A stretch of DNA of 64,000 nucleotides from Escherichia coli (GCF_965641715.1 NZ_OZ282453.1); one strand, 5' to 3'; counted from the first letter of the stretch, positions 5,176 through 25,273 are shown. Numbers and translations: made by a program. The notes: generated by a model not told the origin, from the letters alone.

Positions 5176-6381
5176 TTACGCCGCTGCAATCTTCAGCAGT
5201 TTAATGGCCTGCGAATCGACCAGCATGCCGCCGGTGCGCTTGGTGGTATAAAAACCGACAAACGGTTTATTGGTGTACGGGTCACGCAGAATGCGGGTGC
5301 CGATACGGTCAACGATGGTGTAACCCCGTTTGAAGTTACCAAATGCAATGGCTTTCGCATCAGCGGCGATATCCGGCATCTGTTCGTTTTCAGCGATACC
5401 GTAACCCGCCAGAGAGGACGGCTGCCCCAGCTCCAGCCCCGGACGCCACAGATAGTTACCCTCGCTGTCTTTCAGCAGACGGATGGCAAACAGGCTGTTG
5501 TTGTTCATCATGAACTTCGCGCCAGTGCGGTGTGCCTTACGCAGCGTGTAAATCAGTTTGATAATGGCGTCTGCGGTCACCGTCGTCGCTTCGCCGGATA
5601 CAATATGCTGAAGTTTGCCGAACGCCCGGACCTTATCGGTTTCATCGGTGGATTCATACGCCAGGAACCCTTTTGGCTTCTTGGTACCATCGCCGGAGGT
5701 AAAGGCAATTTCTTCCTGTTCGGCAAATTCGGTTGCCAGCTCGCTGTTGATCCAGGCCTCCACGTTGAAGAAAGCATCATCCAGCATTTTCTGGGTGGCC
5801 TGCGGGTTACCGTAGATTTCCCCCATGAAAGGTTCAATCAGTCCCAGTTTTGAGGTGGCAGTCTGGGAGCGCGCGTCAGTCTCGCCCACCCACCCGGAAG
5901 CCGTGCCGCCCAGATTCACCAGTTTTTTGTAGTCGGAACCGCCAACGGTGATCACCGTGGCTTCCTGGCGCATCACCACTTCATCTTTCAGCAGGGTGAG
6001 AATGTTGCGATCCAGTGCTTCCGGCACGGCATAGCCGCCGTCTTCATCGGTGCCCACCTGTAATGCCTTGCGCTCCAGATCGCGCAGACCATCTTCACGG
6101 CCTTTACGCAGGAAGCCCACAAACGCTTCTTTATGCTCGGTGGCCAGTTTATTTTGCGCACCACCTGCCGGACGTTTCAGCTCAAGCAGCTCTTTTTCAA
6201 GATCGCTTTTGAGATTTTCCAGCTCGCTGAGTTTCCCGTTCAGGGTTTCCACCTGCCCGGCAAGTTTGCCTTTTTCCTGCTCAATCGCATCCACGCGCTT
6301 GTCGTTCTTTGCTTTGAAGTCGTCAAACTTCTGCTGCAGCTCCTGCGCGACCTGTTCGACATCTTTAATATCTACCGCCAT
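5176..6381 (-). CDS. Major capsid protein (HK97 fold), helper prophage
   Basis: 401 aa with N-terminal coiled delta-like region, follows protease and portal. Confidence 0.85.
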   Translation of the reverse strand: MAVDIKDVEQVAQELQQKFDDFKAKNDKRVDAIEQEKGKLAGQVETLNGKLSELENLKSDLEKELLELKRPAGGAQNKLATEHKEAFVGFLRKGREDGLRDLERKALQVGTDEDGGYAVPEALDRNILTLLKDEVVMRQEATVITVGGSDYKKLVNLGGTASGWVGETDARSQTATSKLGLIEPFMGEIYGNPQATQKMLDDAFFNVEAWINSELATEFAEQEEIAFTSGDGTKKPKGFLAYESTDETDKVRAFGKLQHIVSGEATTVTADAIIKLIYTLRKAHRTGAKFMMNNNSLFAIRLLKDSEGNYLWRPGLELGQPSSLAGYGIAENEQMPDIAADAKAIAFGNFKRGYTIVDRIGTRILRDPYTNKPFVGFYTTKRTGGMLVDSQAIKLLKIAAA

Positions 6382-6395
6382 CGTATTTCTCCTGA

Positions 6396-7046
6396 TTAGA
6401 AGTTCAGATTTTTCAGTGCATTCAGTGCAGAGCCCACATCCTCAGCGTCGCGCAGGGACAGTGCGCCATAGCCCCCGGCCATGAATGCTTTGGCCTGGGT
6501 ACGGGAGAGTCCGACATCACGCAGGACTCTTTCGATTTTTTTCTGTTCGGGGATTTCCCCGCGGGCCAGCGCGTTCTTGACGTCGCTGATCCGCGCCTCG
6601 TCGTTAGACGGAAACGTCACCAGACTGACTTCCCAGAGGTCGATTTCTTTCAGCAGAAAGGCTTCTTTCGTCCGGTCGTATTCCCAGTCCTTCAGGACGT
6701 ACCCAATAGAAAGGCCGGTTAACGAACCGGCCTTCATGTGTGCATGTGCGCGTTTTGCCAGGGGATCATCATCAATGAGCAACCGCCCCCTGACGTAAAG
6801 CCCGACATCGTCTTCCTTCATTTCGGTGTAAACACCGATGGGCTCATCCATGCGGTGCTGCCAGAGCAGCGCAGGCAACGCTTTTCTGTCACTCCACGCC
6901 CGCAGGGAAGCAGCAAATGCCCCGGACATCACCACATCATCGTGACTGTCCTTTACACCAAAGACGGAGCCATATCCTTCAAACTCACCGGAGTCACTGA
7001 CAGATTTCAGACTCAGCGGTACATCAAGACGTTGTTTCGTCTGCAT
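6396..7046 (-). CDS. Prohead protease (HK97 family)
   Basis: ..GYGSVFG.. motif region; ORF track start 7082, internal ATG 7046 reduces overlap with portal. Confidence 0.8.
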   Translation of the reverse strand: MQTKQRLDVPLSLKSVSDSGEFEGYGSVFGVKDSHDDVVMSGAFAASLRAWSDRKALPALLWQHRMDEPIGVYTEMKEDDVGLYVRGRLLIDDDPLAKRAHAHMKAGSLTGLSIGYVLKDWEYDRTKEAFLLKEIDLWEVSLVTFPSNDEARISDVKNALARGEIPEQKKIERVLRDVGLSRTQAKAFMAGGYGALSLRDAEDVGSALNALKNLNF

Positions 7047-8265
7047 TGGCGTTATCCTTCTGCTTACCGGCTTTACTGCCATCGGAGGGTTTCGTGGTCA
7101 TGTTCATCGGTGTGAGATAGACATCACCACCGGGACGCGGATTCATATCTTCCAGGTCACGGCAGTCATTGGGAGAGTAAATTCCCCAGTTAATCCCGGT
7201 GGCGTAGGCTTCAAAACGGGACTTCATATCCCCGCGCAGTAACGCCCCGGCGTTAAATTTGGCGTAATAAACGCCCTGCTTACTTTTTCGTACCAGTCCG
7301 GTGTTGATCCGCTGTTCGATGCGGGTCAGATACGGCACCAGTGAATAGTTGATAAATCCGAGCCCCAGTTCTTCGATATTGTTGAAGGTGGCGCGATCGG
7401 TGTTCTGTACCATGTGCAACGGCACCCGGAACAAACGACAGATTTCTTCAAGCTGAAACTTGCGGGTTTCCAGGAACTGGCTGTCCTCGGCGTTCAGCGC
7501 CATCGACTTCCAGTCCAGCCCCATCTCAAGGATCATCGGGCGGTGAGCATTGCCAAGCCCGGTGTGGCGCTCCTCAAAATCTTTCTTCAGGCGCTCATAA
7601 GCCTGATCCGACAGCGTCTGCTCTGTACGCAATACACCCGACGTCACCGCGCCATTGCTGAACAGTCTGGCCCCGTGCTCTTCGGTCGCTGCCGCCAGCG
7701 ATATTGCCTCGCGGGCATAGGCGATGGGATTCAGTCCCACCAGGCCGTCCAGCGTCAGCGTGCGCACATGCCAGATATCCTCCTGGGTCAGCACATCCGT
7801 GGAGCCGTCCGGGAATGTGACCTGATAGACCGGCTCCCAGCTACTGTTAAGCTTCGGTACCACACAGCCAGGATCGACGGGCAGCAGTTCAGCCACTTCG
7901 CCAAATGCTTTCACTTTGTAGGCGTAAAAGTTCCCCCTCAGGCACAGACAGGTGACCACCAGCTCCCAGAACTCCTGCGGCGTCATATATCCATTGGGAT
8001 GCGTGGAGATCAGCTTATGCAGACGTTCGCCGGTGGCTCTCTGTTTCAGGCTGCCGTTCAGGTGATACAGATTGCAGGGCAACATCCCGACCGACTCTGC
8101 CAGCACCCTGACGCAGGAAAAAACCGCCGTCAGTCGCATGGCCCGCTGGCTGCTGATCTGCTTTCCGGTATAGGTGTCGTATGACAGCCCGATAGCATCT
8201 GCCAGCTCTGCTGGCGTGGTCACCGGCGCGTCACTTTTTCGTTGAAATAATCCCGAAAAGAACAC
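7024..8265 (-). CDS. Portal protein (HK97 family)
   Basis: 413 aa portal-like sequence directly upstream of protease and capsid. Confidence 0.85.
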   Translation of the reverse strand: MFFSGLFQRKSDAPVTTPAELADAIGLSYDTYTGKQISSQRAMRLTAVFSCVRVLAESVGMLPCNLYHLNGSLKQRATGERLHKLISTHPNGYMTPQEFWELVVTCLCLRGNFYAYKVKAFGEVAELLPVDPGCVVPKLNSSWEPVYQVTFPDGSTDVLTQEDIWHVRTLTLDGLVGLNPIAYAREAISLAAATEEHGARLFSNGAVTSGVLRTEQTLSDQAYERLKKDFEERHTGLGNAHRPMILEMGLDWKSMALNAEDSQFLETRKFQLEEICRLFRVPLHMVQNTDRATFNNIEELGLGFINYSLVPYLTRIEQRINTGLVRKSKQGVYYAKFNAGALLRGDMKSRFEAYATGINWGIYSPNDCRDLEDMNPRPGGDVYLTPMNMTTKPSDGSKAGKQKDNANADETTS

Positions 8266-8458: not shown

Positions 8459-9184
8459 TTAAAGCGAGCGGATGCCCACGCTGACCAGATGTTCAGACAG
8501 ATCCGGCTCCGGTTCACCACCATTGACCAGCATCCGGCTCATTGCTGTAAACATCGCAACAGGGCCGTCGATTTTGGCTTCCAGCGTGGATTTATTCGGG
8601 AAGATATTGTCGTTTTTGTCCGGTTTTACCGTAACGTTAGACATCATCCAGTTCATGACCGGATGATTGCTGTGATGGAAACGCCCGGCATAGACCAGTG
8701 ATTCCGTTTCCTTCATGGCCTCTGACAGATTGCGAACCGTCTGCGGAACCTCCACCAGCGGTATCCCTTCTTCAGCCAGTGCCAGGCTGAACTGCATCGC
8801 GCTCCACGGGTCAAATCCCAGCTCCCTGAGGTTTTCACCACCAATCCATTCCAGTAAGTCACTTTTTATCTGAGCATGATCGATAACATCACCATCCGTC
8901 AGAATCAGCTTATCCATCTCCGCCCACTTCCGGTAAAGTTCTGCCTGCTGCCGCGAGCATCGTTCCAGCCGTCCTTCCGGAAGCCAGAATTTAAAATCGG
9001 CATGAACATGCCCGTTATCCGTTCGCCAGAGTTTTGCCGCCGCACAGATATCAATCTTATGAGCAAGGTCAACGCCGACCCACATGGGATACGTTTTCAG
9101 CTCATGTCGTGGGGCAATGTATTCGCACTTCTCCCACTTAATCATGTCCATCCAGGCAGACTCTGCTGTTACCCACACATTCAT
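8459..9184 (-). pseudogene. Terminase large subunit, C-terminal nuclease fragment (gene split by satellite)
   Basis: Aligns to C-terminal half of intact TerL 9715..11376; upstream in-frame sequence runs into the satellite junction. Confidence 0.8.
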
Positions 9185-9188
9185 GTGT

Positions 9189-9202
9189 TTTGTGAGAATA
9201 TT
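9189..9202. repeat. Satellite junction core, left copy (tttgtgagaatatt)
   Basis: First 7 bp identical to 24246..24252, 11/14 over 14 bp; same codon phase in terL. Confidence 0.55.
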
Positions 9203-9270
9203 TCAAGTTTTTTAAAATCACCTGTATATCAATCATTTAAAATGAAAAAACAGTCTTTATAAATCATCGA

Positions 9271-9291
9271 GCAATACACAGCGCAATACAC
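9271..9291. repeat. Tandem GCAATACAC motifs, candidate integrase arm-type sites (left arm)
   Basis: gcaatacacagcgcaatacac; near-identical copy at 24095..24115 beside int. Confidence 0.4.
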
Positions 9292-9480
9292 GTATCTGTA
9301 TTGTTTTAATGCTGATACACACCGTTTTTTGATACAGTGATTCGACCTACCATCGCGAAGCATTTTTTATTTCTTGTGTGTAACAATCTGACGAGGTGAG
9401 CACTCAAAGAGATAAGAGGCAGTAGAAATTTCGATCCCCCCCCTGAATGCAATTTTTCGTATATATATATACAAAACAGT

Positions 9481-9632
9481 GCGGGTTATGCGGGTTAGCG
9501 GGTTATCTTCGCGTGCTAAGTATTTTTTACTCTTTAATATCAATACGTTAAAAAACAACGTATCTAAATATCAGCCAGAATGTAACCCGCAAGACATTCA
9601 AAATAACCCGCAAACACCACTCAAATAACCCG
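9481..9632. repeat. Iteron cluster (3 direct GCGGGTTAT + 3 inverted copies around AT-rich spacer)
   Basis: Same 9-mer family as the cluster next to the primase gene. Confidence 0.55.
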
Positions 9633-9714
9633 CAAAAACATCCCTGAAAGTGGGTGCCGATAATACTGAAAATTTATTCCATTAAATGAGCATTGTCCTC
9701 TCTCATCCATTCCG

Positions 9715-11376
9715 TTACACACCATCAAACGTCGCAAGCCGCTCTTTGTGGCTGTCGCTCATATCGAATGCAAATTCCTCATGCTCTGCCTGGAATGTGC
9801 CAAACGCCATCAGCGCCGCAACGCTCGGGTCTATCTTGTTGGATGATTTTTTCTTGTTCGGCTTGATATTGGCGTTCGCGTCACTCTGCATCACAACATT
9901 ACTCATTGACCAGGCCAGCACCGGATCACCACGATGCACAATCACCTTCCGGTTAACAAAAACTTCGAACGATTTCGCCGCCGGACTGAAACGAAGGTAC
10001 GTTTGCGGGAACGGCTCCACCTCAAATCCCGCCCCCTGTAGCTGTGTTCTCAGGTGAGTGGCGTTCCATGTATCGAAGCCCACCAGCCTGATACTGAAAT
10101 TCTCTGCATCCACCATGATGTCATCACGGATACGGTCATAATCAATGCAGTCACCCGGTGTTGTGCGTATCCAGCCCGCCTTTACCCACTGGCGATAAAT
10201 GGCGCGGTTTTTATTGGCGGGGTTCTGTAACTGAAATTCCGGCAGATAGTGACGGGAAACCAGCATAATCTTTTTACCGACCGGAAAGGCATAGCACACG
10301 CTGGAAATATCGCTGGTTGATGATAAGTCCAGCCCCACGTAGCACTCCTGCCCGTATAAATCCGCCTCCGCGAACGTTCCGGCGCACTCCGCCCATGCAC
10401 CGTTACCCATCCACGGCGTAGCCCCCTGACACCAGATATTGAATCGCTTGGTGAGCATTTCCACCCACTGCGACGGAATACCCCGCGCTTTCTGGATGGT
10501 TGAGGCCAGTTTTTCACGATCGACGGAAACATCGATATTGGGATTCGCCTTTATCCACATCGCCGGATCGTCAACCTCGCTTTCATCATCCAGCTCGTAA
10601 ATCAGTACGAACATGGATTCGTTCACCTCTTCACCATCCAGTATCTGGCAGCAATAGTCGTAGTGTTGTTTACAGGCTGAAACAACGTTGCTCCCCGATG
10701 TGGTGATGGCAAATAATAACCCCTCCGGACGCGCCCCCATTCCCAGTTCAAGCGCGGAATAAACCCCGTTGTCAGGGTGCAGGTGATATTCATCTACAAT
10801 GGCAAGACTCGGGTTTGTACCTTCAATGGTTGCCGCTTTTGCTGCCAGTGGCTTTAACAGGCTGTTGGTTTTCGGGTGTATCACCTTGTGTGCCTGAATA
10901 TTTACCCGCTTTCGTAACGGTCGGGATAAAAGGCACATCTGACGCGCATCATCAAACACGATCCGCGCCTGATCACGACTCACGGCGGCGGTGTAAATAT
11001 CCTGCTGCCCGTTTTCCATAACCAGAAACCAGTTAGCCAGGATAGCGGCGACCGTGGATTTGGCATTTTTTCGCGGTACTTCAATGAATGCGCTGGTGTA
11101 TTTGCGCCGTCCGGTGGCCTTAACCTTAAAGCCCAGGATGCACGCAAAGGCGAACTGCTGCCACGGCTCCAGCTCAATGGGGCTACCGCGCATTGCGCCT
11201 TTTACGTGCGGACACACCCTGGAAAAGGCAATAAACTGCTCCACGACCTCCGGATCGAACGTGTAAAGGGGGTTTTCAAGGTCAGAAAAATACCGTTTAA
11301 CGGCCTGTTTCAGTCGTTTACAGGCCGTAATTTTGCCGTTTTTTACGCCTTCTGCGTACTCATGCCAGGCGGTCAA
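9715..11376 (-). CDS. Terminase large subunit (satellite, intact)
   Basis: 553 aa with ATPase motifs (VPRKNAKST, AIVDEYH) and C-terminal nuclease region. Confidence 0.85.
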   Translation of the reverse strand: MTAWHEYAEGVKNGKITACKRLKQAVKRYFSDLENPLYTFDPEVVEQFIAFSRVCPHVKGAMRGSPIELEPWQQFAFACILGFKVKATGRRKYTSAFIEVPRKNAKSTVAAILANWFLVMENGQQDIYTAAVSRDQARIVFDDARQMCLLSRPLRKRVNIQAHKVIHPKTNSLLKPLAAKAATIEGTNPSLAIVDEYHLHPDNGVYSALELGMGARPEGLLFAITTSGSNVVSACKQHYDYCCQILDGEEVNESMFVLIYELDDESEVDDPAMWIKANPNIDVSVDREKLASTIQKARGIPSQWVEMLTKRFNIWCQGATPWMGNGAWAECAGTFAEADLYGQECYVGLDLSSTSDISSVCYAFPVGKKIMLVSRHYLPEFQLQNPANKNRAIYRQWVKAGWIRTTPGDCIDYDRIRDDIMVDAENFSIRLVGFDTWNATHLRTQLQGAGFEVEPFPQTYLRFSPAAKSFEVFVNRKVIVHRGDPVLAWSMSNVVMQSDANANIKPNKKKSSNKIDPSVAALMAFGTFQAEHEEFAFDMSDSHKERLATFDGV

Positions 11377-11716
11377 GCTCGTCCTCTTCCTCTGTTTCCG
11401 GTGGATTTCTGCGGCGACTTACCGGGTCAAAACCCAGCAAAGAAGCCATTTTGATCATTATTCTTTCAGCGTCAGCCTTTGCGCTCAGGGCGGGGTTTCT
11501 GCTCTCGCTGCCCTGACTGTTAACAATGCTGAACCCGCGCGTGGCAAGGTCTTCGACGGCTTTGCGGTATATGGAGTAGTTAACGCAATACAGCTCCAGA
11601 TTGCTCCAGTCGGCGGGGGTAAGGTCTTCCCGTCCGGAAAGCTGGCGCGATTTTTCCTTCCACTGCCTGACCGCGATTTCATCCAGGTAAGCGGGGGCTT
11701 TTGGTGGTCTTGCCAT
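11360..11716 (-). CDS. Terminase small subunit (satellite)
   Basis: Starts MARPPKAPAYLDE..; overlaps terL start; ORF track extends to 11857. Confidence 0.7.
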   Translation of the reverse strand: MARPPKAPAYLDEIAVRQWKEKSRQLSGREDLTPADWSNLELYCVNYSIYRKAVEDLATRGFSIVNSQGSESRNPALSAKADAERIMIKMASLLGFDPVSRRRNPPETEEEDELDRLA

Positions 11717-12004
11717 GTTCTTTTTTCGCCCAATTATTTTCAAAAAAATTCCCGTGCACAAAAATTTGAGGAGGCGGTCGGTGTCCGGCAGGGACGGTTT
11801 TGTCCTGAAAACCTCCCCCCCCCCCTCTGACGGCCTCACCAGCGATTGCGAAAACATTCCATGACCTCGCGGTCACGGTCGGTTAATCGCTTCGCTGTGG
11901 TGCGTTCTGTGCGCCCTGTCCTGTTGGCTTTGTGCCCTGTCTCCTGTGTCTTCCATAAGTCACGCTGCCTTATCAGTCCACGTATCAGCCTGTTTTGCTC
12001 CTGT

Positions 12005-12445
12005 TCAGTCATCATCGCCATACATCCAGTCGTTACGGTGTGCCGCCCGTTCTTCCTGCTCGCGATACATACCCGCCTTACGGTTCGCTTTCGTGGCTGG
12101 ATCTTCCCGTGTTGTCTTACGGTTATGGCACGTCTGGCACAATGCCTGGTGGTTCCACTCAGGCCAGAAGAGAACATCACCGCCGCCATTGATGGGAATG
12201 ATGTGATCCACCACAAGAGCTGGCGTATAAATCCCCTTAGCCAGACAACGCACGCATAACGGATTTTTGCTCAGGTACAGGGCGCGGTATTTGTCCCACT
12301 GTCGGGAATACCCGCGCGCGCGGCGGTGTCCCCGTCTGGCATCCTCTGCACGCCATGCAGCCCGCCTGTGATCTTCGCACTTGCCGGACTTCACGCGCTT
12401 ATTACAGCCCGGCTCAGTGCATCGCCTTAATGGTTGCCACGGCAT
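12005..12445 (-). CDS. HNH endonuclease (packaging-associated)
   Basis: Cys-rich N-terminus and HNH motif (..DHIIPINGGG..H..C..CH). Confidence 0.8.
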   Translation of the reverse strand: MPWQPLRRCTEPGCNKRVKSGKCEDHRRAAWRAEDARRGHRRARGYSRQWDKYRALYLSKNPLCVRCLAKGIYTPALVVDHIIPINGGGDVLFWPEWNHQALCQTCHNRKTTREDPATKANRKAGMYREQEERAAHRNDWMYGDDD

Positions 12446-12744
12446 CAGTACACCCCTACATCACGATAAACCGACCAGAGCGCAGAAATAGCCATAGGCA
12501 GTTCAGACTGCTCCACAGGTGAAACCGCTTCCCTGTTCTCGTACAGGAAAGCGATGTACATCAGGCAACCAACACGTATTGCCGGGGTAAATTCCAGCCC
12601 GTCTTCAAAACGTTTCCCGATATGCTTCTGGCAGGCTTCCAGCGCCGCATCGGTATACATTTTCAGAAGTTCGCCCTCACCTGAGAAGTCATCAAGGCGA
12701 AGATGTGCCCTGACTTCATCAGGTGTAATTTTTTCTTCACTCAT
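12445..12744 (-). CDS. gp6-like head-tail connector (satellite)
   Basis: MSEEKITPDEVRAHLRLDD.. N-terminus; internal ATG, ORF track start 12825. Confidence 0.55.
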   Translation of the reverse strand: MSEEKITPDEVRAHLRLDDFSGEGELLKMYTDAALEACQKHIGKRFEDGLEFTPAIRVGCLMYIAFLYENREAVSPVEQSELPMAISALWSVYRDVGVY

Positions 12745-13951
12745 CTTTTTCACCTTTAATTTCCACCGTCTGCTTCCATGCCTGGCTGAACTCGTCACCA
12801 CCTTCACGCGGCGGCATCCCCTCACGTTCGCGGGCTTCGTTCGGATTCATGATCCCGTTCTTAATCCCTTTCTCATACGTGGCGTAACGCTCGGTTGGAG
12901 TAGCGCGCAGTAAATCGGCTGAATCAAACTCAACCAGATAACGGGTACCAGGTATGGGAGAAGCCACCAGCAAAGCGGCCTTAATTTGCTGTTCGAAGTT
13001 CGCCAGCCATGGGCGCATTGTCATGGTCAGAAACGCGCGGCTTGCCTCACTGAAATTGCTGTAGGTGCTGTTGCTGTATTCCTGAAGAAAAATCGGCGAC
13101 ACGTTGAACATCCGGGCGATGTCTTCAATGGAGAAGCGACGGGAGGCCAGCCATTCTGCATCCTGGTTACTCATCCCCAGTTGCTTGTAATCCATACCCC
13201 CTTCAAGGATTGGCGTTTTTCCGGCATTTTTCGCCCCCTTGTAGCGTTCCAGGGCGTCTAATGCCTGTTTACCTTTCACGCCGTCCAGCCATTCGCCTGA
13301 CGTGATAATCCCTGCCGCCATCATGCCATCTTTCATAATGCTGGCTCCGTGACGCTGTTGAGCAAGGCCAAGCCCCAGCGCCTCACGGCAAATCGTGACA
13401 GGGGAGCGCCCCAGAAAGCCATCATCCGAGGCATAGCGGAGATGCAGAACTTCTTCCTGCAAATACGTGCGCACCGTTCCTGTATAGGGTTCGGTGATGG
13501 TATAGCGGTATTTGTGTGCGCCAGTGCGTTCCGGTACAACACACCCCGGCGCATAAGGATGAAGTGATTTTGGCTGACCGTCCCGCCCCCACTCAATAAC
13601 CGCATAGGCGTTACCGTTCAGCAGGCAGTGACGCATCATTGTGCGTTTAAACTGGTAAGGTGTCTGGCACGAATTAGGCTGCTCATTCAGCAGAATATCG
13701 ACCGGGTGACTGTCCAGCCATTCCCGCGCCTCCCTGCCCTTGTCATTGCGTACCAGATACAGATAACACGGCATCGTGGCCACCGCCTCAGCGATGACAG
13801 AAACCGCGTTCATCACAGCAGGCAATGATTCAGCCGTCCCGGCAGAAACATATTCTCCGGATCCGGTATTCGGTACGCCGGACAGCGCCAGAAAATCATC
13901 AATGGACAGGTTACGCAGATCGCTTTTTTTACGACTAAAAGGCCACCACAT
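12737..13951 (-). CDS. Portal protein (satellite, HK97 family)
   Basis: Portal-like sequence; ATG at 13951 abuts protease stop; ORF track start 14041. Confidence 0.8.
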   Translation of the reverse strand: MWWPFSRKKSDLRNLSIDDFLALSGVPNTGSGEYVSAGTAESLPAVMNAVSVIAEAVATMPCYLYLVRNDKGREAREWLDSHPVDILLNEQPNSCQTPYQFKRTMMRHCLLNGNAYAVIEWGRDGQPKSLHPYAPGCVVPERTGAHKYRYTITEPYTGTVRTYLQEEVLHLRYASDDGFLGRSPVTICREALGLGLAQQRHGASIMKDGMMAAGIITSGEWLDGVKGKQALDALERYKGAKNAGKTPILEGGMDYKQLGMSNQDAEWLASRRFSIEDIARMFNVSPIFLQEYSNSTYSNFSEASRAFLTMTMRPWLANFEQQIKAALLVASPIPGTRYLVEFDSADLLRATPTERYATYEKGIKNGIMNPNEAREREGMPPREGGDEFSQAWKQTVEIKGEKDE

Positions 13952-13952
13952 A

Positions 13953-14513
13953 TCACAACCCCGCCAGTTCAGCCCAGCGATGACGATTATTTCCTGTCGG
14001 GCGTAATTCAGGGTGCTGTGCAAACAACGAACGGTGGGCAATCTCCACGCCGGATTCGGGATAAGCAGGCATCGACGTTATCGTGATTTCACGGAGTTCT
14101 GCGGCGGTAACAGTGCGCAGATACGGTTTTTGCGCGATATTCCACTCTTCGCATAATGCGCGAAAGCCAAAGCTCATTCCTGTAATGTCGCCACGCTCCA
14201 CCAGCGTAAGCACATCTTTTCCAAGCTGGGTATCAGGCGGTGTCAGTTCAAAACGTAGCCCGGTGTTGTCCTCAGTCAGTACCAGTGTTCCGGATTTGGT
14301 GCGCCCCAGCAGTCGGGTATAGTCATGCTCATACAGGCAGCGCACATCATTACCCGCCGCCAGATAGTCAGCAAAAGCCCCCGGCGTGAACTGTTCGCGG
14401 AATTCGTCCCAGATAATTTCTGAAAGGCTGTTCCAGCGAACGGCATACCCCACCAGCTTTTTATTGCTGGCGGTCAGTTCAGATGTGCGGATTTCAAAAT
14501 CGGTGTTTTTCAT
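13953..14513 (-). CDS. Prohead protease (satellite)
   Basis: 186 aa, ..GYAVRWNS.. region matching HK97 protease pattern. Confidence 0.8.
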   Translation of the reverse strand: MKNTDFEIRTSELTASNKKLVGYAVRWNSLSEIIWDEFREQFTPGAFADYLAAGNDVRCLYEHDYTRLLGRTKSGTLVLTEDNTGLRFELTPPDTQLGKDVLTLVERGDITGMSFGFRALCEEWNIAQKPYLRTVTAAELREITITSMPAYPESGVEIAHRSLFAQHPELRPTGNNRHRWAELAGL

Positions 14514-14567
14514 CGGTGTACTCCATAAAGCTGAAAAAGGAGGCCGCAGCCTCCTCCTTACTCATGA

Positions 14568-15737
14568 CTAGCCAGCTTTCATTTCCAGAATTTTGATGGC
14601 GTTTGAATCCACCACACCACCGCCCAGATATTTATCCGTGTGGACCTTGTAGAATCCGGGCTCAGTAATGTTGTCCGGTCGGGTGCGAATCCCTGTTACA
14701 TGATCAACGATGAAATAACCACGACTGAAATCGCCAACCGCTAGCGGTGCTTTTCCTGCGCCGATGTCCGGCATGGACTCCAGGCAGAAAACAGGACGAC
14801 CAAGCAACATATCCGGCGCACCTTCTTTAAGGCTGTCGCGCCAGATATAATCGCCATTCTCATTTTTCAGCTTCTGTAGTGTCCCTGCCGTGCCCGAGTT
14901 CATCACCCAGACGGCATTTTTGCGGTATTTCGCTTTCAGCTTGTAGAGAATGTCGATCAGTTCGTCCGCTGTAATGGCGGTTCCACTTGCCGCTACCACT
15001 TTTTCAATGGTGCCAAAAGCGCGGGTTTTGTCACTGGTCGCCGCACGGGTGTAAGCCATGAAGCCTTTCGGCTTGCCGTTACCGTCGCCATTAACAAAAT
15101 CATCCTCTTCGGTGCTGGCGAACGTGTCGGCAATTTCGGAGGATAACCAGCCCAGAATATCCACCTCTGAAAAATCCAGGATTTCCTGCGTGGTTTTCGG
15201 GTAGGCGTAGATCGGATTCAGCTTGATGGTTACACGTTCAATTTTCGGGGTGTTGGTTTCACTACGTGCGCAGCCTTCTGTGCCTCGTCCTACAGTTGCG
15301 CCGCCAGTGGAAACCAGTTTCTGAAACTCATTTGATTTTGCGGTCTTCACGGTCGCGATCACGCGCATAACACTGTCATCCTGTAGCTGGCGCATGACTT
15401 CGCGATCAAGCTCAGGAATTACGGTATATCCGCCATCCCTGCCGCTGTCAGTGCTGGTGGACAGTGATCGCACATCTCCGGTTACGATGTAGTTACGCAA
15501 TTCATCAGATGATAATTTCTGGATGCCCGTTCCTGGCTTGCTGCGTTCTTCATCAGCCACAGACTCGAGGCGGTAAATTTCTGTGTCGAGGGAATCGGCT
15601 TTTGCACGCAGTTCATCAAACTGTTTGCCCTCGTCATCGTTCAGGCTGCGGTTTTCACTGTCGGCTTTTTCCAGCAGGGATCGCATCTGGTTTTTCAGGG
15701 CGGTTTTTTGCTGGCGGAGTTCGATTAATTTCTTCAT
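14568..15737 (-). CDS. Major capsid protein (satellite, HK97 fold)
   Basis: 389 aa, coiled N-terminal segment, homologous architecture to 5176..6381. Confidence 0.85.
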   Translation of the reverse strand: MKKLIELRQQKTALKNQMRSLLEKADSENRSLNDDEGKQFDELRAKADSLDTEIYRLESVADEERSKPGTGIQKLSSDELRNYIVTGDVRSLSTSTDSGRDGGYTVIPELDREVMRQLQDDSVMRVIATVKTAKSNEFQKLVSTGGATVGRGTEGCARSETNTPKIERVTIKLNPIYAYPKTTQEILDFSEVDILGWLSSEIADTFASTEEDDFVNGDGNGKPKGFMAYTRAATSDKTRAFGTIEKVVAASGTAITADELIDILYKLKAKYRKNAVWVMNSGTAGTLQKLKNENGDYIWRDSLKEGAPDMLLGRPVFCLESMPDIGAGKAPLAVGDFSRGYFIVDHVTGIRTRPDNITEPGFYKVHTDKYLGGGVVDSNAIKILEMKAG

Positions 15738-15974
15738 GAAGGTTTTCTCGTATTGGTTAAGATTCAGGACGTGAAACCAACACGGAGGGAGCGCCGCCCG
15801 ACACTCTCGGCATCTCGCAGATCAACCCGGCATCGCGCAGGGGGTCAGGCGGCATTGTGGCGGCTCACGTCTGAGTGCCACACGCCAACATATACATAAA
15901 AATCAGTATGTAAACATCAGCCAGAATCACCGAACAACCTGGAACAACCACGAACAAATAATTTACAAAACCTG

Positions 15975-16000
15975 AAAAAAAGACCTGGAGAAAATCCAGG
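15975..16000 (-). terminator. Intrinsic terminator upstream of satellite capsid operon
   Basis: Hairpin cctgga/tccagg followed by T-run on minus strand, directly after ORF 16012..16260. Confidence 0.5.
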
Positions 16001-16011
16001 CCTTTATCGCT

Positions 16012-16260
16012 TTATTGTTTCACTGGATCCCGCATTCTGCGTCTTATTTTCCACAGATATTCGATCATCGCTTCCACCTGCTCACGATTGGTTGCGAAAA
16101 TTTCCCCGGTCAGTGAGCTGCGCAGAAAATCATGATGATCCACAACAAACAACGCATCGGAAGAAAGCAGACGGCGATATTTTTTTGCTGTCGTGGTTTC
16201 CAGATCATCAAAACCATGAAACTTTTTATGTTGCTGGACTTCTTCAAATGTCACTGGCAT
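16012..16260 (-). CDS. Hypothetical protein
   Basis: 82 aa ORF, 4-nt overlap with upstream ProQ-like gene. Confidence 0.4.
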   Translation of the reverse strand: MPVTFEEVQQHKKFHGFDDLETTTAKKYRRLLSSDALFVVDHHDFLRSSLTGEIFATNREQVEAMIEYLWKIRRRMRDPVKQ

Positions 16261-16793
16261 GTATCCCCCTTTGCCGCCCGGCGCTGGCGCTTGTGCTTCT
16301 CATTCAGCGCCATCAGCCGCGTTTCTGCCTCCTGCTGTTCCTGTGGTGTCACTTCCCCACATGGCTGGCCTTTCAGGTCGTATCGTACCCCACCAGCAAC
16401 CAGGGCGCGGTAATAGCGCGGAGACTGCGCATAAGATGCCAGCGTCGCACGTAATGCCCCCGGCCCGAATGCCAGCCCCCTGACGGCGAGATCCTGCATC
16501 AGGTCGTCGAATATCCCCACCTTAAGCGGCTTCGGTGCTTCCCTGTTGAATAAGTCAGGCCACATCTCAGTGAGGCGGTTAACGCGCCTGCGGTTTTTGC
16601 GCTGGCGTTTGGTCATATGCCGCCACGGTGTCACCCCTGTGGGCTGCCCTTTGCGGCTCTGCTGTGCGTTCTGATTGCCGGGTATCACTTTATGCGCCGA
16701 TGTGGTTTTATCCCGCTCTTGCGCCGCCTGCGTCGTTTTCTGCGGCGTGCCGTAAATGCCTTTCGGTTTTCGGTTAATGGTCAGCTTTGTCAT
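16251..16793 (-). CDS. ProQ/FinO-domain RNA-binding protein with basic N-terminal extension
   Basis: ..PLKVGIFDDL..RATLASYAQSPRYYRAL..RYDLKGQPCGEV.. parallels ProQ N-terminal domain. Confidence 0.6.
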   Translation of the reverse strand: MTKLTINRKPKGIYGTPQKTTQAAQERDKTTSAHKVIPGNQNAQQSRKGQPTGVTPWRHMTKRQRKNRRRVNRLTEMWPDLFNREAPKPLKVGIFDDLMQDLAVRGLAFGPGALRATLASYAQSPRYYRALVAGGVRYDLKGQPCGEVTPQEQQEAETRLMALNEKHKRQRRAAKGDTCQ

Positions 16794-16957
16794 GCCTTCC
16801 CCTGTAATTACTCTGTTCGCTGTTGTGAATTAAAACGGTATGTTATCCCCGTACAGGTCATCGTGCTGGCCTGTCTGTTGTTTTGCCCTGTTCAGTGCGT
16901 CAGTGGCCTGCCCCTGTTGGCCTTTTTTGCCGCCCGGTCGCGCCGTTCTCGCACTGA

Positions 16958-17254
16958 TTACGCTGTCTGCGATGACCTGCCAGCCCTGCCGCGTTTCGCC
17001 GTTCTGCCCTGTCCACTGCTTACCTGCATGTTACCCGCCACGCTCACCAGTTCGCCTTTGCGGTGTTTTGCCAGTGCGTCGGCCTGTCTGCCAAACGCCA
17101 GGACGGATAACCACATCGTCGCCGTTCCGTCATCTGCCTGGCTGCATGGCAGGGGAACCGCCATACTCGCCATCGCCATTTGTGTTCCCTTGCTGGTGGT
17201 CTTTAACTGCGGGTCAGCCACCAGCCGCCCGTAAGCCGCTATCTGTGCTGTCAT
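16958..17254 (-). CDS. SSB-like OB-fold protein (tentative)
   Basis: 98 aa, ..GRLVADPQLKTT..TATMWLSVLAFGRQA..KGELVSVAG.. resembles short phage SSBs. Confidence 0.35.
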   Translation of the reverse strand: MTAQIAAYGRLVADPQLKTTSKGTQMAMASMAVPLPCSQADDGTATMWLSVLAFGRQADALAKHRKGELVSVAGNMQVSSGQGRTAKRGRAGRSSQTA

Positions 17255-17318
17255 GCTGTCTGCTCTCCGGTTTTAACGTTGATGGTTACGCTTGTTTACA
17301 CCCTTACGGTGAAATTCT

Positions 17319-17441
17319 GCGGGTTATAATCGCACTTTTGCGGGTTATAACTGCCGTTTTGCGGGTTACGTGCGGGTTATTGATTTCCTTTTTATTCATA
17401 CAGTTAATGCACTTATATACATGATAACCCGCATAACCCGC
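17319..17441. repeat. Iteron cluster, candidate satellite origin (4 direct GCGGGTTAT + 2 inverted, AT-rich centre)
   Basis: Immediately downstream of primase/helicase gene. Confidence 0.6.
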
Positions 17442-17464
17442 AACTTTTCACCTCACACAGGGGG

Positions 17465-19588
17465 TTAATCTTCTGCCTCAGGCTGGAACATCAGCACGTA
17501 AAAAACATGCTGCTTCCCCCCAATTTTGCCGAGCGCCTTTTTCTTGTAACGGCGATCGTTACCCGCTTCCAGCATTCCGGCAGCACTCAACGCGCGGGCA
17601 AAGTGAGACGGATTAAATCCCTGTGCTATCTCACCCTCAAATACATGCGGGAACGTGTAAAAACGGAACTCGTCATCTTCGTTTCTGATACTCCCCTTTC
17701 TGTATCCGGCAAGTTCTTTAATCGATAAATCACGCTCGTCGGTATTGGGCCACGGAAGGTATCTGCTGAATCCGAACGACGCTAAAAAAGCTTCTGCCTG
17801 TTCAACCATCTGTTTAAATTCCCTGTTACCCGTGCCGAACTCCTTCACCCAGGCATTAAAATTATGCTGTATGGCATCGCGGCATTCCTGCTCATCCCAG
17901 CCAGTAACATGACCTGAAAGCACAAGCGCGGCCTCCAGTATGGCAAATCGCTCCCCCACACGGTGAACCTGTTCGCCGTAGCTCTCCGGTATCAGGTTGC
18001 GCCACCGCTCACGGCATGTCCTTACCGTGTCCTTTGCCTCCTGCTGGTGTTCTGCCAGCCATTTAACCCACTCACGACCCGCCGCCCCGTGATTTTCTGT
18101 CCAGGCATCCTTTAACGCGTCTGCGTGCGCCTTTCCGGTGCTGTATTCGTGAAATTGCGTGGCTTTTTCCATCGGAACGTTAAGCAGGCGGACAAGCTGC
18201 CCCGCTTTGACTTTTATCCCCTCCGTTTTGAGGAATGTCTCAACGTCCATTTCTCCGGTGCTGATTGCCACCGTGCGCCAGTGTTTGATCTCCCTGTTGC
18301 CGCCGTCCTTCGCCCCCTGTAATTTCCCCGAACCGTTAAACAGCGTATAGGCTGACGTGGACACCTCCCGCGCGTTTCCGGCCTGGCCTATTTCATCCAG
18401 GGGTAAAAGCCCGTCATTGTGTGCCTCTGCTTCGTTGGCGATACCTAACGCTGTGCCGTACCAGGTCAGCCGCTGCGCGTCCGGCTCTCCCCATAAACTT
18501 GATGCGATGTTCTGTGTGGTGGTTTTCCCTGCCGATGACTGTTCGAAAAGATGTACCCCGAAGCCGTCAGCGCCCACCAGCCCGATTAATGGTGCGGATA
18601 ACGATACCGCCACACCCAGCATCATGGACGGATTACCACCAGCCAGCCGCGCAACGGTATCGCGCCAGCCCTCCGCCGTTCCTGCCACGGAATAGCCATT
18701 AACAGCAGCCGTTTTTCCGGTAAACAGGACTGGCTTTTCGCAATCACCAATGACCGAACCGTCCGGCATGATGTACGCGCCAAAATGCCAGCCCGTTGTT
18801 GTGCTTAACTGCCATTCCTCATGGCTTCCGCTTAACTGCATCCAGTCAGCCAGGATAGCCCTGTATTTACCGTTGGTTGTTACGTTCAGTCCGTGGTCTT
18901 TCAGCAACCGCCAGCCGTCACGGTCGCCAATGCCACCGCACGGAACCGCCATTGTGATGACTTCATGGTTTGCTAATTTTTTCCAGCGCATCACGCGGTA
19001 ATGCTCTTTACCGATTGTCCCCGTTCCCAGTAGTTCAAGCGGGGAACATAACCACGTCTCAGGCCGGATAATTTCGCCTGACTGCTTATCCACTTTTGGC
19101 GTTACCCAGAAAACACCATCGGCGCGACTTTCAACGCGGGGCTTTAATTCATCATCGCCCTGGATTTCTGTGATTTTTTTCTTTAAGGGCAACACCAGAC
19201 TTTCCCCGCGCTCGTATTCGTCTTTGAGGCGAGGCAACTGGTCGGATAAATCCGCCGGGCTGATGTCAGTTATCCCCGCGTATTCGTATACGGTCTTCAC
19301 GCCAGCCACAGCCAGCAACGTGACGATCTGTGTAAGGCTACGTTCAGTGATGTGCCCTGCGCGGTAAACACGCACACACTGACGGCTATCATCAATAATT
19401 TGATAACCGGTAATATCTTTCAGGTGTTCATCTGACAGAACGACAGGCGGCACATTGTCGGCGGCAATATGCTTACCTGCCCATTCCTGCCACTCTTTCG
19501 CATGGCTCCACGCATCACTACCCGCAAAGATGATAACCTCCGTCATTTTGTCGGCTGGCTGGTGCTTTAAGTTTGGTGCGCGCTTCAT
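17465..19588 (-). CDS. Primase/helicase-type replication protein
   Basis: 707 aa with Walker A (SSAGKTT), P4-alpha/PICI pri-rep-like position next to iterons. Confidence 0.65.
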   Translation of the reverse strand: MKRAPNLKHQPADKMTEVIIFAGSDAWSHAKEWQEWAGKHIAADNVPPVVLSDEHLKDITGYQIIDDSRQCVRVYRAGHITERSLTQIVTLLAVAGVKTVYEYAGITDISPADLSDQLPRLKDEYERGESLVLPLKKKITEIQGDDELKPRVESRADGVFWVTPKVDKQSGEIIRPETWLCSPLELLGTGTIGKEHYRVMRWKKLANHEVITMAVPCGGIGDRDGWRLLKDHGLNVTTNGKYRAILADWMQLSGSHEEWQLSTTTGWHFGAYIMPDGSVIGDCEKPVLFTGKTAAVNGYSVAGTAEGWRDTVARLAGGNPSMMLGVAVSLSAPLIGLVGADGFGVHLFEQSSAGKTTTQNIASSLWGEPDAQRLTWYGTALGIANEAEAHNDGLLPLDEIGQAGNAREVSTSAYTLFNGSGKLQGAKDGGNREIKHWRTVAISTGEMDVETFLKTEGIKVKAGQLVRLLNVPMEKATQFHEYSTGKAHADALKDAWTENHGAAGREWVKWLAEHQQEAKDTVRTCRERWRNLIPESYGEQVHRVGERFAILEAALVLSGHVTGWDEQECRDAIQHNFNAWVKEFGTGNREFKQMVEQAEAFLASFGFSRYLPWPNTDERDLSIKELAGYRKGSIRNEDDEFRFYTFPHVFEGEIAQGFNPSHFARALSAAGMLEAGNDRRYKKKALGKIGGKQHVFYVLMFQPEAED

Positions 19589-19899: not shown

Positions 19900-19904
19900 G
19901 TTTT

Positions 19905-20358: not shown

Positions 20359-20651
20359 GGCGCACCTCCTGACGAATACGGGCAGCGAATACCATCACGC
20401 AGCCAGCCGGGGATTGCTGGCGTGCTTCCTGTTCGCTAGTGGCCTCAATGGTAATCACACGCGGTTGTGCCGTGCTCAGGGCGATAAAACGCCAGATGTA
20501 TTTATTCAGGTTGTGCGAGTCCCGCCCTTGCGGGTGTGTGGTATGATTTAACATAGCTACCTCGATAATCTTGCTATCGTTGGTGGTTAGAAGCCCGGTT
20601 AGTGTTAGCGCACTGCCGGGTTTCGTCGTTTGTATTTCAATAAAACCATTG

Positions 20652-21673: not shown

Positions 21674-22252
21674 TTACTGAATACGCTCACCAAAGTAAAA
21701 CTCAGGCTGGTATTCACGTATCAGCCTTTTTTCTTCTTCCTCCAGCTCACGCTTTTTGCGCTTACATGCCTGTAGCTCCCTCCCCTTCTCACTGGCACTT
21801 ATCTGGTATTGCTCTTTGCGGCGGGAAAAATCCTGTAATGCGCCCCACGGGATACCATAAGCCCCCGTTTTTCTGATACCCGGTATCACATTTCTGAATA
21901 CCCAGTTACTGAAACGATGAGCAAATGTGCCAGGCGTCGTTGCTTTGCGGCTGCGGGCTATTAGTTTGTAGAAACCTGACTCGGAGATAATGCTCATATT
22001 CTGATTTCCTCCGGGGGTGTAAGTTAAATTTACTCCCTTTTCGTCATCATCAAGCATCTGCAACGCCGTACGCGAATTGGTCAATTCCAGCGCAGCACAA
22101 ACATCCTTTGCAACAAACCACGGATCGCCGTTTAGATACACCACACGAACATCCACGCCATCAAAGCGCAGAACGACCAGATCACGAATATCACAGAATT
22201 TTTTCACATGACGTGCGTCACCCTTGCCCGTCACGGCAATATTTTTATTCAT
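21674..22252 (-). CDS. Bro-N domain protein (antirepressor-like)
   Basis: ..FDGVDVRVVYLNGDPWFVAKDVCAALE.. matches Bro-N consensus. Confidence 0.7.
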   Translation of the reverse strand: MNKNIAVTGKGDARHVKKFCDIRDLVVLRFDGVDVRVVYLNGDPWFVAKDVCAALELTNSRTALQMLDDDEKGVNLTYTPGGNQNMSIISESGFYKLIARSRKATTPGTFAHRFSNWVFRNVIPGIRKTGAYGIPWGALQDFSRRKEQYQISASEKGRELQACKRKKRELEEEEKRLIREYQPEFYFGERIQ

Positions 22253-24094: not shown

Positions 24095-24115
24095 GCAATA
24101 CACAGTGCAATACAC
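24095..24115. repeat. Tandem GCAATACAC motifs, candidate integrase arm-type sites (right arm)
   Basis: gcaatacacagtgcaatacac just upstream of int; copy at 9271..9291. Confidence 0.4.
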
Positions 24116-24245: not shown

Positions 24246-24259
24246 TTTGTGAAAAAATT
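24246..24259. repeat. Satellite junction core, right copy (tttgtgaaaaaatt)
   Basis: First 7 bp identical to 9189..9195; encodes ..FTK of the terL N-terminal fragment. Confidence 0.55.
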
Positions 24260-25273
24260 CACCCGCGCCGAGACCTGCTCCTTCGCCTTTTTCGCCAGAC
24301 GACGCAGATCATCCCAGCGTTTACAGATGCCCAGGCCGGGATTCGCTTTCTGCCAGACCGTTTCATCAAACGGATCATCTCCCTCATCGAGCGTGTAAAT
24401 GATCGCAAAGTAAGAGTCGTCTTTTACCGCGCCCTCCACGTCACTGTTATAGCCACGCAATACCTTAATGGCGTAATCACGCTGCTCGTAACAAATCCCT
24501 TCCTTGTTAAACCCTGCCGTGGTGATACCAAATAAAAGGGACTGCAGACGGGCACCGGTTGCCGTTTCCAGAACGTCCCACACGTCACGGGTTTTATGTG
24601 CATGCAGCTCATCAATAATGGCGCAGTGGATGTTCAGACCGTCCAGGTTGTTTGCATCCGAGGAAAGCGGTTCAAATTTTGATGCGCTCTGCTCCTGGTA
24701 GATCGCCAGCTTGTTGAAATCAAATAACCGCCCGAGTGTCGACCGGGCTTTTCTGACCATATTTTTGGCGTCTTCAAACACGATTCTGGCCTGGTCACGC
24801 GTGGTTGCGGCTGAATACACCTCAGCTCCACCTTCACCATCTGCCCCCGTCATATACAGGCCGATACCCGATGACAGAGTTGATTTTGCGTTTTTACGGG
24901 CGACTTCGTTGTACGCCGTCCGGAACCGGCGCACCATCACCGGACGTCCGCTGCCATCGCTGCGCATGACAACTTCCCCGGTCTCTTCATTCACCAGCGG
25001 AATGACAAAACCAAAAATATTAATGAGGATAAATACATGCCAGTCCATCAACTCAATGGGCTGGCCTGCCAGCGCCCCTTTTACATGAGGCACAAATTTG
25101 TAGAAATTCAGGATGTGCTGCGCACGGGGTTCACTGAAATAAATCCCCCGCTCTTCGCCGTACTTCAGATCATCAAGAAAACGCTGGCAGGCCAGACGGA
25201 CAAATTCCCCAGCAACAATTTCTCCTGCAACAACACGTTCGGCGTAGCGGATCCCGTCAGCCACTTTTGCCAT
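24253..25273 (-). pseudogene. Terminase large subunit, N-terminal ATPase fragment (gene split by satellite)
   Basis: ORF 24080..25273: first ~340 aa align to TerL N-terminus (VARKNAKST, AIIDELH), then 54 unrelated residues read into the satellite. Confidence 0.8.

Follow-up and report, generated by a model that had tools for sequence, protein, structure and literature searches.

The late capsid and packaging module of a very probable helper-embedded cf-PICI within a prophage large-terminase gene of Escherichia coli

Introduction

EcCIEDL933, the prototype capsid-forming PICI (cf-PICI; Alqurainy et al.), is a ~15-kb element whose chromosomal site lies between roxA and phoQ. It has an int-alpA-DUF927 primase-ssb backbone without tail or lysis genes, and its late genes are ordered MCP-protease-portal-connector-HNH-small ORF-terS-terL. 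According to the accessible text of one report (10.1101/2022.09.08.507074), proteobacterial cf-PICIs share the conserved order capsid-protease-portal-head connectors followed by hnh-terS-terL, and EcCIEDL933 was shown to borrow tails alone. cf-PICI variants that miss one core component have been classified as cfPICI types B and C (de Sousa et al.).

A second, overlapping description concerns helper-embedded PICIs (HE-PICIs), exemplified by Eco1645.15.A_Terminase_1_246 in the prophage Eco1645.57.potB (Tommasini, Mageeney & Williams 2023, PMC10111431). The elements of its site group, A:Terminase_1:246, are 15 kb long, lie within the large-terminase gene of ~57-kb prophages at potB, are co-oriented with the late operon and have a four-zone layout. 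According to the accessible text of that paper, each attP arm holds one doubled motif tgTGTATTGCantgTGTATTGCa, placed roughly 81 bp upstream of the centre in one arm and roughly 132 bp downstream of it in the other.

Two further systems are relevant. HK97 and HK97-like lambdoid prophages, which are of the helper type (e.g. HK106), use the same families for MCP, protease, portal, gp6-like connector, HNH, P27-type TerS and TerL. The 16.5-kb record LR881103.1 ('Escherichia phage vB_KppS-Ant'), virion-derived from an induced prophage and deposited as a phage, has the linear order terS-terL ... int ... primase-MCP-protease-portal-Hc-connector-HNH-small ORF. Here, we describe a related locus in a 64,000-nt window of Escherichia coli DNA (GCF_965641715.1 NZ_OZ282453.1), in which a satellite module had been proposed from the bare sequence.

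Results

The original prediction placed a satellite's own major capsid protein (MCP), prohead protease, portal, gp6-like connector, HNH endonuclease, TerS and TerL at 9715-15737 on the minus strand, and a PHROGs profile search confirmed all seven assignments at these coordinates (Table 1). Five of the seven proteins also exceeded the curated cut-offs of HK97/P27 equivalogs in NCBIfam (TIGR01554, TIGR01543, TIGR01537, TIGR01560 and TIGR01558); these include MCP, protease and portal, which identifies the head as HK97-type. The capsid, portal and terminase calls were thus upheld by HMM searches of each ORF. Along the direction of transcription the genes are ordered MCP-protease-portal-connector-HNH-small ORF-terS-terL, which matches the conserved proteobacterial cf-PICI order. 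The small ORF is annotated at the equivalent position in related loci (L001, L003, L006 and L005, which is EcCIEDL933). We infer that the cos site of the island lies between HNH and terS. The helper terS is likewise preceded by a G-rich tract at the corresponding position, and the sequences upstream of the two terS genes are different. The ends of LR881103.1 lie 22 bp ahead of terS on one side and past HNH and the small ORF on the other; they may reflect a convention of assembly and not the physical termini.

Table 1. Features of the island and of the interrupted helper terL, with coordinates in the 64,000-nt window.
Feature	Coordinates	Strand	Basis
3' part of interrupted helper terL, nuclease domain	8459..9202	-	phrog_9 profile positions 449-673
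attR core AATATTCTCACAAA, perfect 7-bp core TCACAAA at 9195-9189	9189..9202	-	both junctions aligned to intact terL (L002)
Doubled motif TGTATTGCgcTGTGTATTGC, attP arm, HE-PICI signature	9271..9290	-	motif search of 64-kb window
Satellite TerL, 553 aa	9715..11376	-	phrog_9 5.7e-180
Satellite TerS, P27 family, 118 aa from ATG at 11716	11360..11716	-	phrog_83 1.3e-38; TIGR01558 64.8 bits vs cut-off 45.6
Candidate cos site, intergenic region upstream of terS, G11 run at 11825-11815	11717..11835	-	inferred
Small conserved ORF between HNH and terS, 61 aa, without assigned function	11836..12021	-	phrog_3173 2.7e-29
Satellite HNH endonuclease, packaging accessory, 146 aa	12005..12445	-	phrog_144 1e-44
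Satellite head-tail connector/adaptor Ad1, gp6-like, 99 aa	12445..12744	-	phrog_40 1.1e-28; TIGR01560 70 bits
Satellite portal, 404 aa from ATG at 13951	12737..13951	-	phrog_12 1.1e-118; TIGR01537 251 bits vs cut-off 112
Satellite HK97-family prohead protease, 186 aa	13953..14513	-	phrog_80 7.6e-60; TIGR01543 134 bits vs cut-off 59
Satellite major capsid protein, HK97 family, 389 aa, N-terminal coiled-coil delta domain	14568..15737	-	phrog_10 3.6e-90; TIGR01554 339 bits vs cut-off 27.5
ssb, frameshifted, downstream of primase	about 16830-17254	-	phrog_44
DUF927 primase/helicase, 707 aa, replication zone	17465..19588	-	phrog_1139 4e-173
Bro-N / anti-repressor-like protein ('Bro zone')	21674..22252	-	phrog_2593 7e-86; BRO-N domain protein in L001
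Two AlpA-like excisionase/regulator genes	22652-22885 and 22310-22618	-	phrog_2790 1.5e-34 and 2.4e-13
Satellite tyrosine integrase, 407 aa	22851..24074	-	phrog_1 2.2e-57; annotated integrase in L001, L003
Second doubled motif TGTATTGCacTGTGTATTGC, int-side attP arm	24095..24114	-	motif search of 64-kb window
attL core AATTTTTTCACAAA	24246..24259	-	both junctions aligned to intact terL (L002)
5' part of interrupted helper terL, ATPase domain	24246..25273	-	phrog_9 profile positions 169-448

These genes form the late module of an island at ~9203-24245, which measures 15.06 kb between the att cores and falls within the range of about 10-18 kb that the accessible literature gives for att-bounded cf-PICIs. 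The island has the backbone of a PICI, with an integrase, AlpA-type regulators and a primase module reading unidirectionally on the minus strand, and to this it adds the capsid, protease, portal, HNH, TerS and TerL of its own that characterise cf-PICIs. Its zones follow the HE-PICI order of Integration (int/alpA), Bro (Bro-N), Replication (primase/ssb) and Late (capsid and packaging). The ssb is frameshifted relative to an intact homolog; this copy of the island may be partly decayed, or the frameshift may be a read error. An accessory gene of the island encodes a ProQ/FinO-domain protein. No island ORF matched tail, neck (beyond the connector), tape-measure or lysis families in the PHROGs search, in agreement with the expected lack of tail genes, and the interval 9203-24245 contains no tail, lysis, immunity (cI/cro) or antitermination gene and no outward-facing int, all of which are present in the surrounding prophage.

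This prophage is lambdoid and HK97-headed, is located at potB/potC and has a tail module that runs past the left end of the window; it is the presumed helper of the island and may not be viable. Its own head and packaging genes had been reported as split between 5176-8265 and 24253-26254, and these coordinates are right; the split arises because the satellite sits within the helper terL, as in the published HE-PICI layout. The 5' part of terL is annotated as a partial terminase in two related loci (L001 and L003). When the two parts were joined in silico at the core TCACAAA, an open 585-aa helper TerL containing both TerL_ATPase and TerL_nuclease domains was obtained. The island therefore uses a prophage late gene as its site, is co-oriented with it and restores it upon in-silico excision, as HE-PICIs do. 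The insertion codon is at ~residue 343, which we estimate to be ~246 residues beyond where the old Terminase_1 profile is inferred to begin. The intact, empty-site terL is found in 521 E. coli genomes and the same attL junction in 35 complete E. coli genomes.

The flanks of attR and attL and the 7-bp identity block match the supplementary sequences of group A:Terminase_1:246 almost base for base, while the core is TCACAAA in the island and, in the examples listed for the group, TTACCAA or TCACGAA. The doubled TGTATTGC motif occurs exactly twice in the 64-kb window, both times on the minus strand and in the expected arms; the distance from the core centre to the near edge of the motif is 79 bp for one copy and 135 bp for the other, although the published distances may follow another measuring convention. 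By its att flanks, the doubled motif and the potB/potC prophage, the island is assigned to this site group of HE-PICIs. The att site and the motif would also place its integrase in the 11capE integrase clade.

The satellite and helper sets had been described as paralogous and clearly diverged, and the protein identities bear this out. Between the satellite and the flanking prophage, identity is 36% for MCP, 19% (weak) for protease, 33% for portal, 33% for connector, 41% for HNH, 27% for TerS and 32% for TerL, the last with the helper TerL reconstructed. The gene orders are, in contrast to what had been proposed, not circular permutations of one another. After rotation of the helper order HNH-terS-terL-portal-protease-MCP, the packaging blocks align, but portal, protease and MCP are in the opposite relative order, though co-directional. 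The permuted appearance arises because attP lies between terL and int and cos between HNH and terS, and also because capsid, protease and portal are arranged in a way particular to the cf-PICI lineage.

The island is closely related to EcCIEDL933 in its late genes, with identities of 93% for TerL, 81% for portal, 63% for MCP and 58% for connector, and its length, backbone, gene order and lack of tail and lysis genes are shared. The best structural match of its MCP is PDB 9GYI, the EcCIEDL933 T=4 capsid; by analogy, the island capsid is predicted to be small (T=4), in contrast to T=7 of the HK97 type. The two integrases, however, are only 42% identical, the island lies inside a prophage gene rather than in the chromosome, and the accessory genes differ, EcCIEDL933 having PerC. 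Compared with HK97-type prophages, the island differs in gene order and lacks tail, lysis and immunity genes. The same prophage-satellite composite is present in E. coli 042, OkiPb01701 and EC416, and the elements in L001 and L003 are 97-98% identical to the island at the nucleotide level, differing in a variable region at ~20.6-22.1 kb and in the ssb, which is frameshifted in the island. LR881103.1, read as a linear genome, shares the architecture of the island and, from MCP to portal, shows about 76% nucleotide identity to it; unlike the island, it has a head-closure gene, a large accessory ORF after terL annotated as tape-measure and a Klebsiella-type host.

The module had also been called complete. 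This holds for the seven genes and is slightly generous otherwise, since a head-closure (gp7/Hc1-like) gene is cleanly absent from the island. EcCIEDL933 and MS724 carry this gene, and in L005 and the sister element L006 it lies between portal and connector. In the accessible text, cf-PICIs are described as carrying two genes for head-tail joining, an adaptor and a connector, that determine tail specificity, whereas the gp6-like connector is the sole neck gene of the island.

Discussion

We consider it highly probable that the module is the late capsid and packaging operon of an EcCIEDL933-lineage cf-PICI, helper-embedded in terL of the potB/potC lambdoid prophage. The reading as a capsid-forming satellite is supported by the att-bounded int-alpA-BroN-primase island, the gene order, the identity to EcCIEDL933 and the lack of tails.

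The head genes truly belong to the HK97 phage family, the ssb is frameshifted and the prophage terL is disrupted, so that the module might instead be what is left of another, defective HK97-like prophage that had inserted into the first, debris after loss of tail, lysis and immunity genes rather than a working satellite. We regard this as very unlikely: a unidirectional int-alpA-BroN-DUF927 primase arrangement without cI/cro, Q, lysis or tail genes is the layout of a PICI, the 15-kb length and the precise att sites recur across many complete genomes that are unrelated, none of the seven head and packaging ORFs is disrupted, and the island TerL shares 93% identity with that of EcCIEDL933, whose function has been demonstrated. 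A temperate prophage, complete or defective, was rejected for 9203-24245 on the missing tail, lysis, cI/cro, antitermination and outward-facing int genes. That two gene sets of the same families occur within 20 kb on one strand could also point to an assembly or collapse artefact or to a recent tandem duplication. Protein identity between the two sets is only 19-41%, and the identical composite architecture recurs in independent closed genomes; because of this divergence and recurrence, such an origin is effectively refuted.

A full terL on the island exactly where the helper terL is broken raises a different explanation, in which the module serves as a backup or replacement: the island TerL, acting with TerS and HNH, would take over packaging of helper DNA or stand in for the split gene, and the duplicated head genes would serve the prophage. 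Late genes captured near the integration site may provide an undamaged version of the gene that was interrupted, as suggested in the accessible text of Tommasini et al. (PMC10111431). We give this explanation a very small probability, slightly below that of a prophage remnant. The low identity of the island and helper TerL and TerS proteins and the different regions upstream of the two terS genes argue against it, in the case of EcCIEDL933 the two packaging systems reportedly work independently and exclude one another (10.1101/2022.09.08.507074, accessible text), and precise excision restores the helper gene anyway.

For the helper-embedded cf-PICI, the functional steps can be extrapolated from EcCIEDL933 and the 11capE HE-PICI. 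The integrated island splits the helper terL. When the prophage is induced, int and alpA would be switched on by a signal from the helper, probably with a contribution of helper late transcription reading through, as work on GN-PICIs and HE-PICIs suggests. Int and AlpA would then excise the island at the TCACAAA core, which in silico leaves the intact helper TerL, and the DUF927 primase would drive island replication. Given 63-81% identity to EcCIEDL933, the island MCP, protease and portal would build small T=4 procapsids sized for ~15 kb, into which HNH-TerS-TerL would cut and package only island DNA from the cos between HNH and terS. The gp6-like connector would dock on the portal, and the filled head would be completed with a helper tail. 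Because the island has no head-closure gene, helper Hc1 is probably added to the filled head as well.

This absence suggests that dependence on tails only may not hold for the island, which, judged by its gene content, probably borrows the helper Hc1 besides tails. We tentatively propose, as a possibility that we hold with less than even confidence, a head-closure-less helper-embedded cf-PICI reliant on its resident helper for Hc1 and tails. The terL position would then act as a cis checkpoint, with helper packaging starting only after satellite excision and the satellite gaining a head start, and the coupling would be tighter and less promiscuous than the EcCIEDL933 model of tails only from any compatible tail.

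In summary, the element is of an already known kind that was correctly read from bare sequence. Publications already cover the family (2022-23), the embedded configuration together with this very insertion site (2023) and the structure of the capsid (9GYI). What is modestly new is only that this sub-lineage has no head-closure gene, which predicts dependence on the helper neck protein. The locus documents one more helper-embedded cf-PICI copy and illustrates that a bare-sequence reading is able to pick out a capsid-forming satellite. Such elements transfer DNA between enterobacteria via borrowed tails, and the embedded form keeps the helper terminase silent until the satellite departs.

The satellite island lies within the terminase gene of its helper prophage

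The inserted DNA (~9203–24245, 15.06 kb) interrupts the large terminase gene of the surrounding prophage, which is itself located at potB/potC on the E. coli chromosome. One part of the helper TerL is encoded by an ORF at 24080–25273, which covers positions 169–448 of the TerL profile and then runs into junk sequence, and the second by an ORF at 8459–9184 covering positions 449–673. The breakpoints, placed by aligning both junctions to the intact terL of E. coli RM10740, are an imperfect 14-bp direct repeat, AAT[T/A]TT[T/C]TCACAAA (24259–24246 and 9202–9189), with the perfect core TCACAAA. Joining the halves at this core gives an open 1758-nt frame for a 585-aa TerL with TerL_ATPase and TerL_nuclease domains. 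This splitting of the prophage TerL by the island accounts for the layout.

Tommasini, Mageeney and Williams (PMC10111431) describe 14 sites in prophage late genes that hold helper-embedded phage-inducible chromosomal islands (HE-PICIs). One of their site groups, A:Terminase_1:246, comprises 15-kb elements such as Eco1645.15 within 57-kb potB prophages, and its supplementary attL/attR sequences match our junctions nearly base for base. The doubled motif tgTGTATTGCantgTGTATTGCa, which the same article gives as diagnostic of HE-PICIs, is also found in our island; its only two occurrences in the whole 64-kb window (9290–9271 and 24114–24095) are co-oriented, one on each attP arm. The composite of prophage and island is present at 97–98% identity in closed genomes such as those of E. 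coli 042, OkiPb01701 and EC416. Of 5,426 complete E. coli genomes, 533 carry a head module of the satellite kind (110 at 95–99% identity), 35 have the exact attL junction and 521 the corresponding intact terL. Both the family of the element and the site at which it is inserted were described previously, and reference genomes contain almost identical copies of it.

The 500-bp non-coding stretch from the satellite terL to attR holds an iteron-like array (9480–9505 and 9583–9635) of three tandem TGCGGGTTA copies, an AT-rich spacer and three inverted TAACCCGCAA copies spaced 21–22 bp. The array might serve as an origin, for the binding of TerS or as arm sites for recombination proteins. The remainder of the composite (~26300–50000; also in locus L004) is a lambdoid prophage with holins, an M15 peptidase, tRNA genes, Q, RusA, hokD, YdaT, cro/cI-like genes, dicB, an exonuclease, xis and int. 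Its end adjoins potC/potD, and the E. coli core genes cobB, nagK and lolCDE lie further out.

The satellite encodes its own, diverged head and packaging module

The genes concerned here are all on the minus strand, and the module at 9715–15737 is transcribed from high to low coordinates. Each of its ORFs matched the expected PHROGs family (E-values 1e-28 to 6e-180), and the major capsid protein (MCP), protease, portal, connector and TerS exceeded the curated cut-offs of HK97/P27 equivalog models in NCBIfam; the predicted module is thus real, at the predicted coordinates, and far beyond chance. The connector alone had no match by sequence among solved structures. A promoter/terminator scan said little about the late operon: it gave fewer promoter-like sites than shuffled sequences did and, upstream of the MCP gene, no more than a weak site (15914–15887).

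Coordinates of the satellite and helper head and packaging genes
Feature	Coordinates	Strand	Product length
Satellite major capsid protein	14568–15737	minus	389 aa
Satellite prohead protease	13953–14513	minus	186 aa
Satellite portal	12737–13951	minus	404 aa
Satellite gp6-like connector/adaptor Ad1	12445–12744	minus	99 aa
Satellite HNH endonuclease	12005–12445	minus	146 aa
Satellite conserved ORF	11836–12021	minus	61 aa
Satellite small terminase, P27-type	11360–11716	minus	118 aa
Satellite large terminase	9715–11376	minus	553 aa
Helper portal	7024–8265		
Helper protease	6396–7082		
Helper MCP	5176–6381		
Helper Ad1	4620–4925		
Helper Hc1	4273–4611		
Helper HNH	25904–26290		
Helper TerS	25273–25755		
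Helper terL halves	24246–25273 and 8459–9202	minus	

Pairwise identity between satellite and helper was 36% for MCP, 19% for protease, 33% for portal, 33% for connector, 41% for HNH, 27% for TerS and 32% for TerL. This range of 19–41% bears out the expectation of paralogous yet diverged sets: the two head sets are old paralogues, and neither arose by a recent duplication event or through faulty assembly. A defective-prophage reading and a backup-terminase reading were also weighed and rejected.

The island has the architecture of published capsid-forming PICIs (cf-PICIs), and the satellite interpretation of the module is essentially right. Its gene order is that of the prototype cf-PICI EcCIEDL933 in the EDL933 chromosome, whose proteins are 93% (TerL), 81% (portal), 63% (MCP) and 58% (connector) identical to ours. 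The top PDB match of the satellite MCP is 9GYI, reported in a 2025 preprint as the T=4 capsid of EcCIEDL933. In contrast, the integrases are only 42% identical, which fits an integration specificity different from that of EcCIEDL933. The 'phages' collection contained no close copy of the island, only relatives of ~76% identity. A related element of cf-PICI architecture is filed as a phage under LR881103.1 ('Escherichia phage vB_KppS-Ant', 1–16548), a 16.5-kb virion-derived record from an induced prophage with the order terS-terL ... int ... primase-MCP-protease-portal-Hc-connector-HNH. The 765-aa ORF after its terL carries a tape-measure annotation and is probably a misannotated accessory gene.

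The satellite gene order is not a circular permutation

Direct comparison of the two gene orders overturned the earlier description of the satellite order as a circularly permuted helper order. When both are drawn as circles, the HNH-terS-terL blocks coincide, but the other block reads MCP-protease-portal in the satellite and portal-protease-MCP in the helper, reversed in order and yet co-directional in transcription. The capsid-protease-portal arrangement of the satellite is lineage-specific. Part of the apparent permutation arises because attP lies between terL and int, while the most likely position of cos is the interval from HNH to terS. LR881103.1, written from terS to HNH plus a small ORF, is consistent with this cos position, although its ends may be a record convention instead of physical termini. 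G-rich tracts of differing sequence, a G11 run at 11815–11825 in the satellite and GGGGAGGGGCGGG at 25873–25885 in the helper (both on the minus strand), occupy equivalent positions upstream of both terS genes and are candidate cos elements.

Island content outside the head module

The island begins with a tyrosine integrase, two AlpA-like genes, a Bro-N/anti-repressor-like gene and small ORFs (an Icd-like and a DUF4222 gene among them) and continues with a DUF927 primase, ssb and a ProQ/FinO-domain ORF before the head and packaging module. Compared with its homolog in OkiPb01701 (L001, 13643–14068), which is intact at 141 aa, the ssb gene (~16830–17254, minus) has a frameshift after residue ~80, through either decay of the satellite copy or a sequencing error. 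The accessory ORF upstream of the capsid operon (16251–16793, minus) matches the ProQ/FinO RNA-chaperone domain (E ~1e-17, below NCBIfam cut-offs), whereas EcCIEDL933 and the element of E. coli 042 carry a PerC-family regulator in its place. Downstream of each AlpA-like gene is a strong terminator-like hairpin with a T-run (22609–22628 and 22276–22301, minus), so that read-through into the Bro and replication zones may be controlled by attenuation or antitermination. C4/isrK immunity RNAs have been reported in some PICIs; an Rfam scan of 9000–26500 at gathering thresholds gave no matches, these RNAs included.

The satellite integrase (22851–24110) matches positions 690–811 of the phrog_9 large-terminase profile through its C-terminal third (2.8e-25). 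Phage records in which terL and an island gene were mis-joined into one terL::island call have probably entered this profile, and false TerL annotations could follow.

The satellite may borrow a head-closure protein in addition to tails

The sequence itself shows the gene content and the att sites, that the island has the same orientation as the helper late operon, and that excision restores terL in frame. By analogy with experiments on EcCIEDL933 and HE-PICIs, the helper would trigger AlpA/Int expression, possibly with its late transcription reading through into int, and the island would excise and be replicated by its own primase. Island MCP, protease and portal would then form small T=4 heads, the island HNH-TerS-TerL would cleave cos and package its own DNA exclusively, and the filled heads would be joined to helper tails.

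As for the original prediction of a complete head module, the seven gene assignments stand, but by the EcCIEDL933 standard the head-closure gene is absent. In EcCIEDL933 (L005, 9734–10072) and in the sister embedded element of MS724 (L006, 4234–4572), this gene sits between portal and connector. At the corresponding junction of our satellite (12737–12744), ~340 bp are cleanly missing, with an overlap between the stop of the portal gene and the start of the connector gene. According to a 2025 preprint, the adaptor/connector pair determines tail specificity in cf-PICIs. The genes for the head-closure protein Hc1, Neck1, the tail terminator, major tail protein, chaperones, tape measure, holin and endolysin are all carried by the surrounding prophage. 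Its Hc1 is 63% identical to the head-closure protein of the MS724 satellite, far above every other satellite-helper pair, which suggests that this satellite variant uses helper Hc1 in place of a head-closure protein of its own.

The island ORFs had no matches to tail, neck-completion, tape-measure or lysis families, in agreement with the expected lack of tail genes. The further claim that only tails are borrowed is probably a little too narrow, as the satellite would also take Hc1 from its helper. The one lead that emerges from this analysis is the sub-lineage lacking a head-closure gene, with its implications for dependence on the helper.
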